Shown here: one piece after another, positions 14,010 to 41,892 of the stretch
How positions within the stretch are numbered: position 1 is the stretch's first letter
How the letters are laid out: every line of letters starts with the position of its first letter
Assembly: GCA_963665845.2 (NCBI GenBank)
Contig: OY762492.1
Span: 3,456,001 to 3,520,000 of the forward strand
Reading direction: 5' to 3'
Length of the DNA: 64,000 nt
Origin: Candidatus Poribacteria bacterium
Lineage (GTDB): Bacteria > Poribacteria > WGA-4E > GCA-2687025
Notes under the pieces: model-generated
Databases searched by the model: none
Told to the model about the DNA's origin: nothing
Seen by the model: only the letters and a program-made list of their open reading frames with translations
Made by a program: the position numbers and the translations under genes

Positions 14010-14507
14010 ATGCGTATGAAGCGTCCAAAGATTGTCACCATCGGCGTTTACGGTTTTGACGAGGAAGGTTTTTTTGAGGCGCTACGCTCCGCGGGGGTGG
14101 ATGTTTTCTGCGACATTCGCTTTAGGCGCGGCATGCGCGGCGCAGCCTATGCGTTCGTCAACAGCGTTCGTCTGCGGGAGCGCCTTGACGAAATGAAAAT
14201 CCGTTATCTGCATCGAAAAGACCTTGCGCCGACGCAGGCGGTTCGAGACCGTCAAGCGGAGGAGGACCGCGCCTCTAAAACGGCGAAACGAAAGCGCGTC
14301 CGGCTGGGCGAGGCGTTTATCGAGGCGTACCGCGCTGAATGTCTTGACTCGTTTGATCCGCAAAGTTTACTGGACGATCTTGGGGAAGATGCGCAGGTCG
14401 CGGCGCTGTTTTGCGTTGAGAGGGAACCGAAGGCATGCCACCGTTCCTTGCTGGCGGAGAAGCTGAAGAATGAGCTTGGTCTTGAGGTGAAGCATCTTCT
14501 GCCATGA
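14010..14507 (+). CDS. DUF488 family protein (second, divergent clade)
   Basis: IVTIGVYG, DIR, LAPT and LFCVEREPKACHRSLL motifs. Confidence 0.85.
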   Translation: MRMKRPKIVTIGVYGFDEEGFFEALRSAGVDVFCDIRFRRGMRGAAYAFVNSVRLRERLDEMKIRYLHRKDLAPTQAVRDRQAEEDRASKTAKRKRVRLGEAFIEAYRAECLDSFDPQSLLDDLGEDAQVAALFCVEREPKACHRSLLAEKLKNELGLEVKHLLP

Positions 14508-15151
14508 ATTCCGCCATGATGAACGTCAGGCTGTTGATCGCCGCCAAAACGCGAATGAGGAATGGAGTCTGCCTCGGCGCGTTGACAACAAGGGGGGAGA
14601 ATCTTCGGTTGATTCCGCCAGGCGAAATCTTCTTTCCCTTTGCGGATGCGGAACAGTTTGAGATCGGGCAGGTCTGGGAGATGACGGTTCAGCGTGTGAG
14701 GTCTGTCAAACCGCCGCATACAGAAGATGTTTTTGTTCATCAAAGAGAGCAAGATCGAACTCTGACAATGGAGGAGACGGAAACCGCAATTGAAAAGGTG
14801 GCGGAGATTGCCGCTGGGCGTTTCAGCGCGCTTTATGACAGGTTGTTGCGACGGACATCTGCGGGATCGCTTTACATATCGAGAGCGGGCGGCGTTCCGA
14901 ATTACAGCGTTGGGTTTTGGCGTCCAGACAAGCCGCTGACGCGCTTTCCGACAGGCAACGGGCAGCGTTACCGTTATCCGACATCAATGGGGCCATTGAG
15001 TTTTAAGTTTGTCGGGTTTCAAGAGCCTATCGAGACGATTCCTGCGGATACGCTGGTTCGCGTTTCGTTGGCGCGCTGGTGGAAACCTGATGATCTGGAC
15101 GTGGAGTTGCGCTGTTACGCGCAAATCTCTGGATGGTACAAAAAACCTTAG
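14504..15151 (+). CDS. probable dual OB-fold domain protein
   Basis: LLIAAKT..GVCLGAL..LRL, PPHTED, VRVSLARWW..CYAQISG; coupled to DUF488 genes. Confidence 0.6.
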   Translation: MNSAMMNVRLLIAAKTRMRNGVCLGALTTRGENLRLIPPGEIFFPFADAEQFEIGQVWEMTVQRVRSVKPPHTEDVFVHQREQDRTLTMEETETAIEKVAEIAAGRFSALYDRLLRRTSAGSLYISRAGGVPNYSVGFWRPDKPLTRFPTGNGQRYRYPTSMGPLSFKFVGFQEPIETIPADTLVRVSLARWWKPDDLDVELRCYAQISGWYKKP

Positions 15152-15615
15152 CAAGCTGATTGGGCGCTACTGACGAAGGCGGGCGTGGAGACGCTCTTAA
15201 GCGGTTCCGTTTCCCCCCGATGATGCGCGTTCAACGCTTCGTCCGCCATATTGCTTAGGAGCGTTTCGGATTCAGGCAGTCGGAACGCCGCGTCCCATTT
15301 TGCGTCGTCCTCCTCGTCTTCCTTTTTGATGCGCGCAAATTCAGCCCCGTATTTTCGGTGGTTCATCAGCTCAGGTTGAAGCGAAACGGCGGCGCTAAAA
15401 TCCTCTTCGTAATTGTCCATATCGCCGATTTCTTTGTAGGCTAGTCCGCGGCATATAAACGCAGGGGCGCAGTATCTGTCTTGCTCAATTAGGCTTTTGA
15501 AGCATGCGATCGCGTCCGACCATCGATTTGCCCGCATATATGCGCACCCTAAAAGAGAAAGAGTCCTTGTTTCCATACTCTGGAGTTCCTTGCGGTCGTC
15601 AACGAAAAACTGCAT
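15148..15615 (-). CDS. short TPR protein with antitoxin-like C-terminal tail
   Basis: two TPR units (LLGCAY..AIACF; AFICRGLAY..DF..A) then DDAKWDAAF..MADEALNAHHRGETEPL. Confidence 0.65.
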   Translation of the reverse strand: MQFFVDDRKELQSMETRTLSLLGCAYMRANRWSDAIACFKSLIEQDRYCAPAFICRGLAYKEIGDMDNYEEDFSAAVSLQPELMNHRKYGAEFARIKKEDEEDDAKWDAAFRLPESETLLSNMADEALNAHHRGETEPLKSVSTPAFVSSAQSAC

Positions 15616-32995: not shown

Positions 32996-34252
32996 TCAAC
33001 CCTTTCTCTGACAGACAACGATGCATTCTTCATGCATCGTCGGCGCCGTTTTCCCGGCGATGTTTGCGGGGCTGTTCGTTTTCGGCATGCGCTTGTTCGG
33101 GATATTGCGGACGATCGTCTCTCGGTGGGCGAAGCCATGGCGTTCAAACGCGGCGGCGATGAATTCGTCTGTCCGCAGATATTCGCCTTTCACCCGGCGG
33201 TTTCCGACAACATAACAGACCGTCGACACGGGCTTCAGCGCCTTGGCGACCGCGGCGGCGCTGCGTTCCAGGTCGGCGTAAAACGCGGACGCTTCTCTCC
33301 CCCGTTTCTCGTCCTGCGCGCGAATCCTCTCAACCGCCGAGGCGACCGGCGAATCGGGGTCATGCGCCGCCTCTCCGACGCGCCCGCCCATGCTCATTTT
33401 GTCGACGCGCCGCGCCTCGGCGTATCCGATCCACTCCGACGCCAGCCGCGAAAATTGCCCGTACGCGACGGTCGTCTGCGAATCGCCGTACGGCGGCGAG
33501 GTCAGCGCGAGCGCATACCCGTTCGGCGGATGCGGCATCGGCAACTCGCCATGCGCCGTATTCGCGCTTGAAACATGCGCCTCCACCCGCTTTCGCTTCT
33601 GAAGATAGGCGGACATGCCCAGCCTGTTTCGGTACAGCTTTTTGCGGAAAACGTCAAAAACATCGGGGTTGAAAGTTTCCATCTTCGGCGCGGGGATGCG
33701 ATGCAGTTTGAATTCGCCCGTCCGCGTGTATGAGCATTCTCGTACCGTTTCGGAAAAGGCGACCCAGAAAAAATCGCGGATCGAGTCATCCTCCTCGGCG
33801 CCGATTTCAGCCCGAAGAAACGCAAGCCTTTCGATCACATCGTCCGAGAACCAGTACTCAAGATTGAGTATGTCAGGGACGGGGCGTTCTGGGACGTCTC
33901 CCGAAAAGCCGACCTTCAGCAGCCTTCCGCTCAAGCGGTCTAGACGCAAATCCAAGAGGGCGGGCGGAATCGGCGTCGTCTTGACGCGCGCGATGAGCCG
34001 CGCCAGCGGGTTGATGTCGCACCCGACGCTATGCATTCCGAACAGCGACGCCTCCGCCAGCGATGTTCCTGTCCCGCAGTACGGATCCAGCAGCCATTCG
34101 CCCTCAACGCCGTACCGTTTCAGAAGCTCCCGCGCGATCTGCGGGATCATTCGGGCGGGGTAGTTGTGGAAGCAGTGCGTGTACTCTTTTGTGTTCGCCC
34201 CGCGGAAATCCCAGTCCGCCTCATGCGTCTTATTGATGGGCGTCCCTTTCAT
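32996..34252 (-). CDS. amino DNA methyltransferase, probably N4-cytosine; no adjacent endonuclease
   Basis: THCFHNYPARMIPQIA, LDPYCGTGT (motif I), TSPPY (motif IV), VVGNR. Confidence 0.9.
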   Translation of the reverse strand: MKGTPINKTHEADWDFRGANTKEYTHCFHNYPARMIPQIARELLKRYGVEGEWLLDPYCGTGTSLAEASLFGMHSVGCDINPLARLIARVKTTPIPPALLDLRLDRLSGRLLKVGFSGDVPERPVPDILNLEYWFSDDVIERLAFLRAEIGAEEDDSIRDFFWVAFSETVRECSYTRTGEFKLHRIPAPKMETFNPDVFDVFRKKLYRNRLGMSAYLQKRKRVEAHVSSANTAHGELPMPHPPNGYALALTSPPYGDSQTTVAYGQFSRLASEWIGYAEARRVDKMSMGGRVGEAAHDPDSPVASAVERIRAQDEKRGREASAFYADLERSAAAVAKALKPVSTVCYVVGNRRVKGEYLRTDEFIAAAFERHGFAHRETIVRNIPNKRMPKTNSPANIAGKTAPTMHEECIVVCQRKG

Positions 34253-36082: not shown

Positions 36083-37388
36083 GCGCGCCGCCCGCTTCAA
36101 CCTCTTCAACCGCTTCTTTGAACGCTTTCTCGGTCGCTTCGATTTCCGCCGCCGTATGCGCTGTTGAAACAAAAAACGCCTCAAACTGCGCGGGAGGCAG
36201 GTAGACGCCGCGGTTCAACATGGCGCGGTGAAAGCGTCCAAACTTCTCCGTGTCGCACGCGAGCGCGCCGTCATAATCGGTTACAGGTCCTTCGCCAAAA
36301 AAGACGCACAGCATGGAGCCGACGCGCGCCGTGTAAAACGGACCCGCCGCCTCTGAAAGCGCGCGTCGAATGGCCGCCTCTAATTGCGCGCCGAGCGTTT
36401 CAAGCCGTTCATAGACGCCCGGTTTTTTCAACTCGGTCAACGCGGCAATGCCCGCCGCCGCCGCCAGCGGATTTCCGGACAGCGTCCCCGCCTGATAGAC
36501 CGGACCGGTCGGCGCGACGACCGCCATGATGTCGGCGCGCCCGCCGTATGCCCCAACAGGCAAACCGCCGCCGACAATCTTGCCGAGACAGGTCATGTCG
36601 GGGGAGACGCCGTAACGCTCCTGCGCGCCGCCGTAAGCGAGGCGAAAGCCGGTCATCACCTCGTCAAAGATGAGCAGCGCGCCATGTTTCGTTGTCAATT
36701 CGCGCAGCGCCTCTAGATACCCTTCCGCCGGCGGAACCAGCCCCATATTGCCGGCGGCAGGCTCCAAGATGACGCAGGCGACTTCGTCCGGATGTTCCGA
36801 CATGGCGCGGTCGACCGCATCGGCGTCGTTGAACGGAACGATGAGCGTATGTTTGGCAAAATCGGCGGGGACGCCCGCGCTGGTCGGCGTTCCAAAGGTG
36901 GTCGCGCCGGAGCCTGCTTTCACCAACAGATAGTCGGCATGTCCATGGTAGCAGCCGGCGGCTTTGACAATCATATCGCGCCCGGTGAAGCCGCGCGCCG
37001 CGCGTATCGCGCTCATCGTCGCCTCGGTGCCTGAATTGACGAGGCGTACGCGGTCCATGGACGGGTACGCTTCGAGGATCATCGCCGCCAGCCGCGTTTC
37101 GTATTCGCCGCAGGTTCCAAAGCTGGTTCCGCGCTTCAACGCTTCGCCGACCGCCGCTTCAATGGACGGATGCGCGTGTCCTAAAATGAGGGGACCCCAT
37201 GAGGCAACATAGTCGATATATCGGTTTCCGTCGGCGTCCATGAGATGCGGCCCGGCGCCGCGCTCCATAAAGACCGGGTCGCCTTGGACGGCTTGAAAGG
37301 CGCGGACGGGGCTGTTGACGCCGCCTGGCATCGTTTGCTGCGCCTCCGCCCACAACTCCGCCGACCGACTCCGTTTGCGATTCGGCAT
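36072..37388 (-). CDS. hemL: glutamate-1-semialdehyde 2,1-aminomutase
   Basis: [58 protein letters not shown]. Confidence 0.97.
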
Positions 37389-37563
37389 CGCTCCAACGCT
37401 CCTGCCCTACAACTGCGATCGCTAATAAGCATACCATACCAGATTGCGCTCTGAATAGAAAGCGCAACTCTTCGACGGCGGTACGCTGATGCGGTAAAAC
37501 GCGCGGGAATCCAGAGGCGCCGTAGAAACCATCCGCGTTCACCTGATGTCAAGAAAACGCGGT

Positions 37564-37591
37564 TTGACAACCCCCCAGCATCGTGTATAAT
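37564..37591 (+). promoter_or_regulatory. consensus sigma70 promoter for the TPR-PIN-PIN locus
   Basis: perfect TTGACA (37564) and TATAAT (37586) with 16-bp spacer. Confidence 0.75.
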
Positions 37592-37640
37592 AATCTGACA
37601 GCGCGGCATAGCGCCGCATCGGTTGCGATTGGAGCGAAGC

Positions 37641-39647
37641 ATGGCTGAACGAAGCGAAATTCAGAGCGATCGATTTTTAGCGCATCTTACATCGCAGAGC
37701 ATTGTTGCGGACAGTGAATCCATCTTTCAGGGCGGTTTTCAACAACCGCAAATCATGGCGTTTTCAGTAGAATCTAACAGTCCCCTATTCACCTCGCTCA
37801 ATGAGGCTGTTGATCAAACACGGACTTCCTCTGATCAATCGAAAGGCTCCGGCGGCGCCGTTGAAGCGCAGCCTAAAGATCGGTCGGCTGCTCTGAACGA
37901 AATTGCAGATCCGAAACTTCGCGGAGCTCTGAATAGAGCGTTGAAATCGCAAGACGAAGCGGACGAAAAAGGCGTCAATAAAAAAACGCGCTACAGATTG
38001 CTGATGCAAGCAGTCGGGAACTACAGTGACGCTTTGGATTTGATGGCGCGACAGAACGAAGGCGAAAAAGACGTTGCGTTGGAATCGGCTATTCATAATG
38101 GCATTGGCGTCGCTTACGGGATTATTGGCCGTTCAGATGACGCAATTGACAGATTTGGCAAAGCCATCAAGATTGATCCCGACAATGCGATTGCCCACTA
38201 CAATTATGGCGTCGTTTGCATACAGAGCGGGAAGATTGACGCGGACGCATATCATAGCCTGGGCGTCGGTTCCATGTTACGCGGCAACGCCGACGAAGGC
38301 GTAAAAAATCTCAAAAAAGCGATTGATCTAGGCTCTAAGAACTCTGACACATTTTTGTATTTGGCTACCTATTATACACAAATTGGCGATCTTGATCAAA
38401 CTATAGCCTATCTTAAAAAAGCCGTTAATATTAGTCCAAAAGATGCAAAATTATATCACAGGTTAGGCATTGCGTATGGAGAATCGAAAAATCCGAACAA
38501 AGCAATTGAAAATTTTGAAATAGCCGTCAAAATTAATCCAAATGATGCGGGAATTTACTATAGTCTGGGTGTTGCTTACAGTCTGGTAGGCAATCGCAAG
38601 AAAGCGATTGAATATGGACATATGTCTATTGATCTCAATCCTGATTTTGCTGACGCTCTCTTTAACCTAGGGAATGAATACATAAGGGAAAGAGAATTCG
38701 ATACCGCAATAAAATATCTCAAAAGGGCTATTGAAAAAGGTCCTCGCCGCATAGACGCTTATATGAACCTGAGCTATGCGTATGAGAAAAGCAACAGATC
38801 TGAGGATGCAATTGAATGTTGCCTTAAGGCGCTTGCGATCAACCCCGAAAACATCGTTGCGCATCATAACCTAGGTATTGCGTATGCGAGAGCCGACAAC
38901 CTTGAAGCCGCCCTTGAAAGCAGTCTTCAAGCGATCCGAATGAAACCCGACTTCGCCGCCGCATATATGGGGCGCAGTTTCATCTATCTTATAAAAAGAG
39001 AACAGGACGAGGCAGCAGGTCAGCAGGACGAGGCAGCAGATCAGATGAATGAGGCAGCGGAAGACTTCGCTGTCGCGCTGTCGCTCAATCCAGAGCGGTA
39101 TCAGGAGTATGCCGACATATTTGCTGATGTTCTGCGGAAGATCGAAGAAGATGAAGCGCCCTGGAACGAGCTGCGCGCCGCGCTCATCCAGGCGCAGTCG
39201 GACGCGGAGCATGAACAGCCGGAGGGATGGACGACTCTCCTCAATAGCGCGTTGGAGGCGGTCGACAAGCTCGCCCCGCTGCGAAAAGACATACGCCGCC
39301 TCAACCGCGCGGCGAAATATTTGGCGGTAGAAGAATGCCGCGATGTCCGGACAGAGCTTGGATATGTCCTGAACGAGGCGCTGGATCGATTAGGCTCTCT
39401 AGCGGCGTTTCAGCGCGAGACGGCGCGGCATGCGCTTTCGATGGAAGCGTCGGGAGAAGAAAAAGATGGCTTTGCGGCGGCGCTGCTCCGGCTCAATCGG
39501 TCGCTGGACGCCATAAAGATTGAGGAGGTCAACGATGATTTTCTGAAAATTCGGGCAGATAATTCGATGCAAACCCTCCGCTATCTGCAGACCCGTATCA
39601 AAACGGGCGGGCGAAAGTTCACATGGGAAGAAGCGAATGAGCGTTGA
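37641..39647 (+). CDS. TPR-array protein with helical domain and C-terminal antitoxin-like tail
   Basis: about 10 TPR units; ends ..TGGRKFTWEEANER and overlaps the PIN start by 11 nt; GGAG before ATG 37641. Confidence 0.85.
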   Translation: MAERSEIQSDRFLAHLTSQSIVADSESIFQGGFQQPQIMAFSVESNSPLFTSLNEAVDQTRTSSDQSKGSGGAVEAQPKDRSAALNEIADPKLRGALNRALKSQDEADEKGVNKKTRYRLLMQAVGNYSDALDLMARQNEGEKDVALESAIHNGIGVAYGIIGRSDDAIDRFGKAIKIDPDNAIAHYNYGVVCIQSGKIDADAYHSLGVGSMLRGNADEGVKNLKKAIDLGSKNSDTFLYLATYYTQIGDLDQTIAYLKKAVNISPKDAKLYHRLGIAYGESKNPNKAIENFEIAVKINPNDAGIYYSLGVAYSLVGNRKKAIEYGHMSIDLNPDFADALFNLGNEYIREREFDTAIKYLKRAIEKGPRRIDAYMNLSYAYEKSNRSEDAIECCLKALAINPENIVAHHNLGIAYARADNLEAALESSLQAIRMKPDFAAAYMGRSFIYLIKREQDEAAGQQDEAADQMNEAAEDFAVALSLNPERYQEYADIFADVLRKIEEDEAPWNELRAALIQAQSDAEHEQPEGWTTLLNSALEAVDKLAPLRKDIRRLNRAAKYLAVEECRDVRTELGYVLNEALDRLGSLAAFQRETARHALSMEASGEEKDGFAAALLRLNRSLDAIKIEEVNDDFLKIRADNSMQTLRYLQTRIKTGGRKFTWEEANER

Positions 39648-40101
39648 TGCGTTTATCGATACAAACGTCGTACTATACAAGTATGACCATAAGGATGCGT
39701 CTAAACAAAGAAAGGCGGACCGTCTCATCAAAAGCGCGGTCGAAAATAAAGACGCGTGCATCAACTATCAGGTCGTTCAGGAGACGCTGGCTGTTCTGTC
39801 GGGCGGAAAATTCAGAGCGCCTCTTAGAGAGCTGGAAGCGGAGCTGCGGGATACGTTGTTGCCGCTCTGGACGGCAAACCCTGCGCAAAATGCGACGCCG
39901 ACCCCAGACCTCTACCGCCGCGCCGCCGCTGTCATGGACAAGAGCGGCTACAGCTTTTATGACAGCGTTGTCATCGCCGGCGCTCTTGAAGCAGGCTGCA
40001 AAACGCTTTACACCGAAGATATGGAGGACGGACATCAACTCGAATCTGTAACGATTGTCAACCCGTTCAAAGAAGAGGAGAACGCGCATTCCAAATCCTG
40101 A
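39637..40101 (+). CDS. PIN domain ribonuclease (VapC-like)
   Basis: FIDTNV, QVVQE, SFYDS, GCKTLYTED and IVNPF; acidic tetrad intact. Confidence 0.93.
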   Translation: MSVDAFIDTNVVLYKYDHKDASKQRKADRLIKSAVENKDACINYQVVQETLAVLSGGKFRAPLRELEAELRDTLLPLWTANPAQNATPTPDLYRRAAAVMDKSGYSFYDSVVIAGALEAGCKTLYTEDMEDGHQLESVTIVNPFKEEENAHSKS

Positions 40102-40585
40102 GAATGAAAAGAGCGCTAATCAAGGAGAACCGCCGCCCAAAGACGCGCCGATAAAGATCGAGTACATGATCGGCCCCGATGTCGTCGCAGCCGCCTTTGA
40201 CGATACGAACGGCAGGAGGCGTGGAATAGCGGAACAAATCATACAACGGGCGCTCAGCAACCAAAGCGGATGCGTCAGTTTCCAAGTCGTTCAAGAAACC
40301 CTCAACTGGCTTGACAAGAAACAAACGTTGCATCCAAGAGATCGCAACACTTATATGGAGACCGAGCTGATTCCCCTTTGGACGCAAAATCCTGTTTGGC
40401 AGAACCAGCCGACGCTGGACACATATCTGCGCGCTTTACAGATCCAAGACGCATACCAGCTGCATTTCTACGCTGGACTTCTTGTGAGCGGCGTCATCGA
40501 TGCAGGATGCCAAACGCTTTACTCGGGGATGTACGATTCTCGGCAGAAAATCGAGGGAGTGGACATCGTCAACCCGTTCAACTAA
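40088..40585 (+). CDS. degenerate PIN-fold protein; start uncertain (ATT 40088 after GAGGAG, TTG 40055 or ATG 40166)
   Basis: QVVQETL, GCQTLYS and IVNPF retained, but DTN->GPD, FYD->FYA and TED->SGM. Confidence 0.75.
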   Translation: MPNPENEKSANQGEPPPKDAPIKIEYMIGPDVVAAAFDDTNGRRRGIAEQIIQRALSNQSGCVSFQVVQETLNWLDKKQTLHPRDRNTYMETELIPLWTQNPVWQNQPTLDTYLRALQIQDAYQLHFYAGLLVSGVIDAGCQTLYSGMYDSRQKIEGVDIVNPFN

Positions 40586-40758
40586 AGAGGATGGGGCATG
40601 CTTGGTCAGAGCGTCGGCATTCGCAAGCCTCATGTCAATCTTTTCAATCTTGGAAATCCTAGTTCAGACCACAAACGCGGCGCCTAAGATTCCCGCGCGT
40701 TTTACCTCAAGGGAGGAAACGACTTGCGCCGCCGCCCCGAAACATAGACAATGCGCCT

Positions 40759-41892
40759 ATGTCAAAGGCGCGCAGCGAACGCAAACGGCAGGATGAGCAA
40801 TGGATGGCGCGCGCGCTGGAGCTTGCCCAAAGCGCGGCGCGGCGAACCTCCCCCAACCCGATGGTCGGCGCTGTCGTCGTCCAGAACGGGCGCGCTGTCG
40901 GCGAGGGGTTCCATCGAGGCCCTGGACATCCGCACGCCGAAGCGGAAGCGCTGAAACAGGCGCAGGAAAAAGCCGACGGCGCCGCGCTCTATGTGAACCT
41001 AGAACCATGCGCCCATGAAGGGCGAACGCCGCCATGCGCTGATCAGCTGGTCGAATGCGGCGTCGCGCGCGTCGTCTCCGCCATCGAAGACCCTGACGAG
41101 CGGGTGTCGGGGCGCGGACATGCGCGCCTGCGGGCGGCGGGCATACGGGTTGAAATCGGGCTGATGGCGGAAGAAGCGCGCCGCCTCAACGCCCCGTACC
41201 TAAAATGGAAACGGCGCGGCGTCCCGTTCGTCACGCTCAAAATGGCGATGAGCCTAGACGGCAAAACGGCGACCGGGACAGGCGAATCGAAGTGGATCAC
41301 CTCGGAGGCGGCGCGCCTGGACGGCAGGCGTCTGCGCGTCTCGCATGACGCGATACTGATCGGAGTCGGTACCGCCCTCGCGGACGATCCGCATCTCACC
41401 GCCCGCCTCCCCGACAGCGGCGCCGATCAAGACCCGCTCCGCGTTGTCGCGGACACGCATGCGCGCCTCCCGCCGACCGCGCGCATGTTTCAAAACCGCG
41501 GCGGTAAAACGATCCTCGCCGTCGGCGAGACGGCTCCTGTCAGCCGCGTCCGCGCGTTGGAGTCGGCGGGGGCGGAGGTATGGCGCCTGCCGCTTTTGGA
41601 GGGGCGCGTCTGCCTTGAGTCGCTGCTTCGGCGCCTGGGCGAAGCGGGCGCGCTGAGCGTTCTGGCGGAGGGCGGCTCCGCGCTGCATGGAAGCCTCGCG
41701 CGCGGTCGGCTGGCGGACAGGGTCGCCGCTTACATCGCCCCGATCATCATCGGCGGAGAAGGGCTGCCGGCGGTCGGGGACGCCCAGCTCAACCGCCTCT
41801 CCGACGCCCTGCGCATACGCGACTGGACAACGACCCGCATCCCGCCGGACATACGCATCGACGGGTATATTGAAGAAGCGGACAGCGAATAG
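40759..41892 (+). CDS. ribD: riboflavin biosynthesis deaminase/reductase
   Basis: PNPMVG, HAE, NLEPCAH.GRTPPC, SLDGK, SKWIT, DDPHLT, EGG. Confidence 0.96.
   Translation: MSKARSERKRQDEQWMARALELAQSAARRTSPNPMVGAVVVQNGRAVGEGFHRGPGHPHAEAEALKQAQEKADGAALYVNLEPCAHEGRTPPCADQLVECGVARVVSAIEDPDERVSGRGHARLRAAGIRVEIGLMAEEARRLNAPYLKWKRRGVPFVTLKMAMSLDGKTATGTGESKWITSEAARLDGRRLRVSHDAILIGVGTALADDPHLTARLPDSGADQDPLRVVADTHARLPPTARMFQNRGGKTILAVGETAPVSRVRALESAGAEVWRLPLLEGRVCLESLLRRLGEAGALSVLAEGGSALHGSLARGRLADRVAAYIAPIIIGGEGLPAVGDAQLNRLSDALRIRDWTTTRIPPDIRIDGYIEEADSE

Follow-up and report, generated by a model that had tools for sequence, protein, structure and literature searches.

What triggers chromosomal type II toxin-antitoxin (TA) systems is a long-standing question, and in the locus analysed here the candidate input belongs to a module of its own, which is exchanged between toxins. 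The locus occupies positions 37,564 to 40,585 of a 64,000-nucleotide (nt) stretch, hereafter the window, of contig OY762492.1 from a Candidatus Poribacteria bacterium (assembly GCA_963665845.2). It encodes a 668-amino-acid (aa) protein with tetratricopeptide repeats (TPRs), a VapC-like PIN protein (PIN1) and a second PIN protein (PIN2). A first-pass annotation had read it as a TPR sensor fused to an antitoxin, accompanied by an active and a dead toxin. Judged by the architecture described here, it is likely that a foreign protein could switch the neighbouring RNA-cutting toxin on via the TPR head. To the complete reading, in which the locus is a ligand-gated type II TA system, probably antiviral, we give an even chance.

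The nature of the end of the 668-aa protein was approached through the relatives of PIN1. A single-sequence scan of genome contigs with PIN1 returned nothing; an alignment-based scan gave 348 PIN1 relatives, the best 80 of which were taken as loci. In 77 of these 80 loci (the other 3 were unresolved by pattern) the PIN gene follows an open reading frame (ORF) with the same kind of tail, and the overlap between the two genes is 11 nt in 71 cases and 14 nt in 6. Seventy-two of the upstream ORFs could be trimmed to proteins of 73-93 aa with a start resembling a ribbon-helix-helix (RHH) domain, a label that rests on reading by eye and on weak Pfam matches, all below cut-off (VapB_antitoxin, E 0.028; DUF6364; FitA-like RHH). 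The 74-aa antitoxins form an uncatalogued subfamily. In a search of about 25,600 ORFs, positions 43-74 of the 74-position profile built from these 72 small antitoxins aligned with aa 637-668 of the fusion protein (E 4e-6). Profile positions 1-42, the RHH half, had no match in the 668-aa protein, nor in the genome above E 0.07. Because the match is confined to positions 43-74, the 668-aa protein has kept the toxin-facing half of the antitoxin and lost the DNA-binding half. The first-pass annotation had placed small antitoxins with such a tail and the same overlap in front of this PIN subfamily; this is borne out, and the tail does have antitoxin homology. Given this homology and the two-part layout usual in antitoxins (PMC4803016), the last 32 residues would be expected to bind PIN1 and to neutralise it by blocking it. 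Predictions of the complex of two PIN1 chains with the helical-tail domain scored 0.02, 0.33 and 0.26, against a mark of 0.32, and weigh neither for nor against binding. A separate small antitoxin translated from within the gene was considered and rejected: none of the four internal in-frame starts in the last 200 codons has a clear ribosome-binding site, most paralogues carry L or I in place of M601, and the RHH half is missing from the genome as stated above. Within 2.5 kb of the best 80 PIN1-relative loci no TPR or helical-domain match was detected.

The layout of the locus and of its immediate borders is as follows.

37490..37545, no strand: dispersed genomic repeat, REP-like (repetitive extragenic palindromic), left of the cassette, matching many places in the genome
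37564..37591, + strand: sigma70-type promoter consensus, TTGACA-16-TATAAT, 12/12, from a promoter scan
37641..39647, + strand: gene of the 668-aa fusion of TPRs, helical bundle and antitoxin tail, ATG start at 37641
37641..38078, + strand: N-terminal region, aa 1-146, assigned to no family
38079..39110, + strand: TPR array, about 9 repeats with capping helices, AT-shifted, from Pfam and our own TPR profile
39159..39548, + strand: helical domain, aa 507-636, predicted four-helix bundle of no family, starting at the PWNEL junction, the point of head exchange
39549..39644, + strand: antitoxin tail (aa 637-668), homologue of the 74-aa RHH-type antitoxins over their positions 43-74 (E 4e-6)
39637..40101, + strand: PIN1, VapC-like predicted RNase with the full acidic active site (PF01850)
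40166..40585, + strand: PIN2, PIN1 paralogue with 3/4 core acidic residues lost, alternative start TTG 40055
40587..40734, no strand: remnants of dispersed genomic repeats, right of the cassette, from genome matches

The promoter is the sole perfect site among 6 in 37380-40800. Related promoter/leader DNA is found upstream of several paralogous cassettes, and a GGAG lies 6 nt upstream of the start of the 668-aa ORF. Most of what the first-pass annotation had described at this level is present, namely the consensus promoter, the tail with its 11-nt overlap with a VapC-like PIN gene, and the position between a hemL-like gene (PF00202) and ribD (PF01872, PF00383). What it had called REP remnants are the stretches 37490-37545 and 40587-40734, both of them dispersed genome repeats with many places among the matches listed. 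The AT-rich TPR core is equally real, with a GC content of 0.39 in 38300-38900 against 0.60 for the chromosome. The shift extends to four-fold sites, where the value is 0.54 in the TPR part (second lowest of 45 TPR ORFs measured) against a host-like 0.83 in the helical part, and for this reason the fusion gene is considered as a mosaic.

Concerning the fusion protein itself, the roughly 670 aa and the helical domain of the first-pass annotation correspond to an ORF of 668 aa with a helical domain at aa 507-636, and its "about 10" TPRs were roughly right: our own TPR profile gave 9 repeats and Pfam TPR_1 gave 7 stretches. The Pfam families shown for this protein (25 of 34) are all TPR or helical-repeat families, with no STAND NTPase domain among them, and the longest unassigned stretch of its domain map is 146 aa. 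Neither a signal peptide nor a membrane helix was seen in a crude hydropathy scan, so the protein is likely cytoplasmic. The TPR array is 51-62% identical to those of three long relatives, and the first 28 aa also occur in C1:3608159, a TPR protein with a ParE-type antitoxin tail. The helical domain was modelled as a four-helix bundle with a mean predicted local distance difference test score of 86.7. Fold comparison placed it closest to generic four-helix bundles (Z up to 12.3), matches that lie below the level of the tool for helical folds. No family for it exists in Pfam and NCBIfam, the Atlas gave no usable match, and the domain was not found in the 40 relatives, JGI metagenome contigs, viral contigs and plasmids searched. 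Among 1.84 billion representatives it retrieved itself, two small antitoxins via the tail, P0018 (repetitive sequence) and P0017.

Six database proteins of 205-645 aa join TPRs to the same C-terminal domain, with different TPR arrays (P0010, partial, P0011, P0013, P0014, P0015 and P0016). P0011 is 100% identical to the window protein over aa 507-668 and 51% identical over the TPRs. With these six proteins and a contig of sequencing run X5 that crosses the junction, the fusion is not unique to this assembly. The heads have moreover moved between PIN-type and ParE-type tails, with a W(D/N)(E/D)L junction as the point of exchange: P0014 combines the tail of the 668-aa protein with the head of C1:1680518, which in this genome ends in a ParE-type tail, and the head type of the 668-aa protein is found on a ParE-type tail in C1:3608159.

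The first-pass annotation had presented this architecture as a single locus; the locus stands as described, but it is in fact one of many TPR-antitoxin fusions of several kinds. Of the 54 TPR ORFs in this genome, 18 terminate in an antitoxin part belonging to one of four unrelated kinds, and an intact toxin directly follows 11 of them. Among the 18, the helical/RHH-type tail occurs once. UPF0175 occurs four times (3/4 then followed by a DUF3368 PIN) and the AF2212-type tail twice, as its C-terminal half only (1/2 then followed by VapC; stand-alone forms exist in genome G004). The remaining eleven are of the ParE type, by which we mean the sort of tail usually seen on small proteins paired with ParE-like toxins; six of these have an intact toxin, five of which pass the PF24732 cut-off. 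The genome contains no PF05016 or PF05015 match. One more ParE-type ORF, the twelfth, resembles a TPR protein by eye only. Three of the fusion kinds have retained the toxin-facing half of a small stand-alone antitoxin but not its N-terminal half, and all 4 PF01850, 3 DUF3368 and 8 ParE-like matches of the genome sit behind an enlarged antitoxin. As the antitoxin parts share no homology, fusion must have occurred separately at least four times. The paralogous cassette arrays are located among DNA methylase and restriction-modification genes.

Some side observations concern these arrays. Tandem TA cassettes with shared leader DNA, a restriction-type gene (labelled by eye) and DNA methylases lie at G000 C1:1671000-1693400 (L008, L011) and C1:3604000-3612200 (L009), and an apparently matching site in G001 (L187) holds a different cassette set. 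A dispersed repeat unit occurs six times with 58-nt spacing at G000 C1:3597177-3597491. In the window, at 15148-15615 (- strand) and 14010-15151 (+ strand), a toxin-less TPR protein with a ParE-type tail converges on a DUF488 and dual-OB (PF22557) pair.

The spread of the UPF0175 kind was followed by a PF03683 search of 61 genomes of the class, in which 27 loci outside this genome with frames of at least about 197 aa were examined. TPR-UPF0175 fusions were present in 26 of them, as 29 ORFs with 1-17 repeats in 22 of the 60 other genomes, and they span four families, that of this genome included. By our own reading of the loci, 19 of the 29 are followed by an intact DUF3368 PIN, 6 by a fragment and 4 by none. 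Three begin with a TIR domain, each then followed by a DUF3368 PIN: L126 (G049), L129 (G055) and L130 (G028). The UPF0175 fusion may be one old event, its relatives then not being independent. The ParE-type TPR fusion was also found in G001 (7 ORFs); in 28 loci of other genera, drawn from a survey in which 30 of about 160 matches were given loci, the ParE-type tail was carried 15 times by small stand-alone proteins and never by a TPR protein. In G055 a further kind associates TPRs, an antitoxin and a PF05016 ParE. The same genome has, at L230 (C1:880500-897000), a cluster of seven TPR genes that have a capping segment in common but differ in their N- and C-terminal domains.

The toxin side of the window locus was examined in the same way. 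PIN1 matches PF01850 with 39.7 bits (cut-off 23.6) and retains D8, N10, E49, D109, E127 and D128, each of which is present in 58-59 of 59 family rows. Its subfamily was not found in the 60 other class genomes at E 1e-25. The only relative of solved structure for the PIN1 profile is PcrIIC1 (PDB 8wmm, E 3.5e-16), described as a putative PIN nuclease that enhances targeting by type II-C CRISPR (PMC12669027). That PcrIIC1 is the sole solved relative hints at its origin from such a TA toxin.

PIN2 has no Pfam match, but the PIN1 family profile recognises it with a probability of 99.9. It is 36% identical to PIN1 and, as the first-pass annotation had it, a dead paralogue: D8 is replaced by G and D109 by A, positions 127/128 are non-acidic, and only E49 is left. 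Translation may begin at TTG 40055 or at ATG 40166, and the annotated length of three database relatives is 139 aa. A decaying pseudogene was considered and rejected, on small numbers: the indels listed in contigs of other studies are all frame-keeping, three database copies (91-99% identical) share the dead-site residues, and pN/pS is 0.40 for PIN2 (7 silent, 10 replacement codons) against 0.29 for PIN1 (7, 7), as computed from 36 listed of 37 X6 differences. PIN2 adjoins PIN1 in one contig each of runs X6 and X8 and is present in X7, these being three other studies. Together these data point to PIN2 as a kept protein. An adjacent dead PIN was found beside none of the 6 other copies in the genome and in none of the 80 outside loci, one of which holds a second PIN match 1.4 kb distant. 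The tripartite system does not hold as a general form: because PIN2 is found at one locus only, the three-gene form is a local elaboration specific to that locus.

How could such a locus work? One promoter, overlapping genes, an intact PIN1 site and the homology of the tail suggest a VapBC-like cassette whose predicted antitoxin lacks the DNA-binding half. The four-helix bundle would replace the RHH as a dimerising stalk, and with the bundle in place of the RHH we propose that the cassette would not be autorepressed and would be steadily expressed, as for a sentinel. The exchangeable TPR head would act as a protein sensor, its trigger being most likely a phage protein. Ligand binding would then displace or destabilise the tail and free PIN1, which would cut RNA and stop translation. 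PIN2 may pair with PIN1 and set the threshold, either as a buffer or as a helper in the manner of SMG5-SMG6.

Extended to the class, this proposal becomes a family of modular immune receptors, in which variable TPR arrays (some with TIR heads) would have joined the toxin-binding halves of unrelated antitoxins on at least four or five independent occasions, and recombination between tandem cassettes would have shuffled them, giving NTPase-free programmable pattern-recognition switches, this one tuned by a dead toxin copy. We advance this extension tentatively, as possible rather than probable. The importance of the finding rests on the repeated and widespread architecture more than on the three-gene form. 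Nature has provided controls, since one tail occurs with a long, short, foreign or no TPR head and one head on two toxin types, and these make the question of the TA trigger directly testable. With a third of the TPR genes of the genome ending in an antitoxin part, there is also an alternative reading for part of the TPR expansion in these likely sponge symbionts. If the gating is true, the scaffold is a simple protein-triggered switch.

A number of observations weigh against gating by the head. Six of the seven helical-tail copies in the genome are TPR-less, consisting of bundle and tail only (178-182 aa). All six overlap a PIN gene, 2 of these PINs being intact and 4 broken, some of the latter perhaps through homopolymer errors. 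They have the promoter/leader and first codons in common with the TPR gene, and look like internal deletions or precursors. Because six of the seven copies do without TPRs, the repeats are regarded as an optional head on the bundle; the first-pass idea that a TPR array had replaced the DNA-binding domain is right in that the RHH half is gone, but it is the 130-aa helical bundle that stands in its place. An intact toxin is lacking behind 7 of the 18 TPR fusions in the genome and behind 10 of the 29 UPF0175 fusions elsewhere, and some fusions have only 1-3 repeats. Among 29 TPR ORFs sampled in G055 (20 regions from the top 150 matches), one has an antitoxin tail, in addition to the UPF0175 one, and 7 finish with the same cap and carry no payload behind it. 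A TPR fusion was found directly upstream in 0 of 28 PF01850 loci in four other genomes. The TPR groove is identical among relatives at 71 of 150 positions and the outer surface at 86 of 180, so the groove has no extra variability, within a repeat alignment that may be imperfect. The locus is placed between housekeeping genes, DUF3368 and UPF0175 are themselves only predicted TA partners (PMC2701414, PMC5499597), and in PADLOC-DB 2.0, a comparison proposed by the first-pass annotation, no system model matches either PIN, the TPR protein giving four weak partial matches. The ligand, the toxicity and the defence role of the locus are predicted. Finally, a DEAD-box helicase with an MrfA Zn-binding domain carries the same tail as an in-frame fusion, ahead of a PIN1 relative (L059:127-2511, Dehalococcoidia), and in other genomes of the class long non-TPR ORFs of 224 to >497 aa end in antitoxin-like tails directly before PINs (L199, L202, L203, L200, L206 and L222). 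In view of such proteins, antitoxin tails fuse readily to their neighbours, which favours a reading of the head as a passenger.

As a separate observation, two PIN paralogues at G000 C1:3610639 and 3611688 carry a frameshift at one and the same position of an A-rich run; a lesion common to both, phase variation or an error in sequencing could account for it.

A passenger head is the core of the main rival explanation, in which addiction serves as gene glue: the recombination-prone and expanded TPR genes of this lineage fuse to what follows them, and a fusion with an antitoxin persists as its loss would free the toxin, the head having its own job or none and no control over the toxin. The TPR-less copies with the same leader, the payload-free caps, the tails on a helicase and other long ORFs, the frequent toxin decay and the ordinary variability of the groove are all in agreement with it. 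TPRs are also the commonest repeat in Poribacteria, where they are usually read as host-interaction proteins (PMC3909097). We nevertheless consider gene glue less likely than gating, as the UPF0175 fusion has been kept over four families with the toxins intact in 19 of 29 cases, as an antitoxin fusion located in the cytoplasm cannot be a secreted protein that faces the host, and as the exchange of heads at one junction and the TIR heads look like input tuning.

Distinctly less probable is a sensor of the state of the host cell, where the head would bind a chaperone, a protease adaptor or misfolded proteins and control the turnover of the antitoxin under stress, leading to dormancy and not to phage defence. 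The model for this is the logic of toxin-antitoxin-chaperone (TAC) systems with their SecB-like proteins, and TPRs are general protein-binding modules. The housekeeping neighbourhood and the strong, unrepressed promoter would fit. However, a fixed partner predicts a conserved head, whereas 38-49% of the head positions differ between proteins whose C-terminal domains can be identical, and the repeat number ranges widely. Very unlikely, in the end, is a PIN pair acting as a non-toxic accessory or scaffold like PcrIIC1 within a three-protein complex of another task, which would suit the sole solved relative of the PIN1 profile and the retention of the dead PIN2, but not the 77 of 80 closest relatives that lie behind an antitoxin-type gene nor the invariant active site.

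An assembly artefact was rejected for the cassette: a single contig of run X3, from study P1, which may be the source, spans 37497-40669 with zero differences, and the contig of run X5, from another study, covers the TPR-helical junction (38902-39346), also with zero differences. The TPR part is uncovered in runs X5 and X6, which is no evidence of its absence. A sponge metagenome run contains a 96% identical contig. G001, a genome of the same genus that is 91% complete and about 90% identical in DNA, has rearranged hemL and ribD blocks, which stop at window positions 37463 and 40717 and are without the cassette. A DNA methylase gene (PF01555; window 32996-34252, - strand) lies 3.4 kb from the cassette and is also found in the syntenic block of G001.

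Compared with known systems, the locus resembles VapBC/FitAB-type TA systems by its PIN toxin with the full acidic site, by the overlapping upstream gene, an antitoxin by homology, and by the homologous toxin-facing tail. It departs from them in that the antitoxin has 668 aa, with a helical bundle and a TPR array where a small antitoxin would carry an N-terminal DNA-binding domain (RHH, AbrB, HTH or Phd), and in the dead PIN that follows. In TAC systems the third gene encodes a SecB-like chaperone, unlike the PIN paralogue found here. The sister fusions draw on the antitoxin and toxin families of the predicted TA pairs COG2886 (UPF0175) with PIN and COG2880 (AbrB-like) with PIN (PMC2701414) and on the PIN family COG2405/DUF3368 (PMC5499597). 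These pairs are however described as small proteins, and "TPR" occurs 0 times in the main texts of both papers. PF20698 (TPR-GreAB-C-PIN) does not match the window PINs and gives a weak match below cut-off (E 0.016) for one sister DUF3368 PIN. A third protein that tunes neutralisation is known from the tripartite PasABC system, but PasC is not presented there as a toxin paralogue (PMC4803016). In the SMG5-SMG6 composite PIN a paralogous PIN partners the active one (PMC12923823); that system is eukaryotic, and for PIN2 such a role is only proposed here. The first-pass annotation knew of no described system with this architecture, and we found no description of TPR-antitoxin fusions, nor any paper associating UPF0175 with tetratricopeptide, in the literature searched, which held few subscription journals and no supplements (the supplementary tables of PMC2701414 and PMC5499597 could list some).

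The closest parallels in the proposed logic are found among phage-sensing systems. In CapRel SJ46 the antitoxin domain doubles as a sensor of phage proteins and frees the toxin (PMC11578894; 10.1101/2023.12.08.570793), but CapRel is one polypeptide with a toxSAS toxin, whereas the PIN toxin is here a separate ORF in another frame and the TPR array is exchangeable. In Avs, TPR arrays are established phage-protein sensors, and variable TPR-like arrays serve as putative pattern receptors coupled to an effector in these STAND NTPases (10.64898/2026.01.04.697583); the locus has no NTPase switch, and the coupling would run via the antitoxin tail. Placed among these systems, the locus appears as a type II TA variant that lacks a defining feature of each of VapBC, CapRel and Avs, with a TPR-antitoxin layout that is apparently new.

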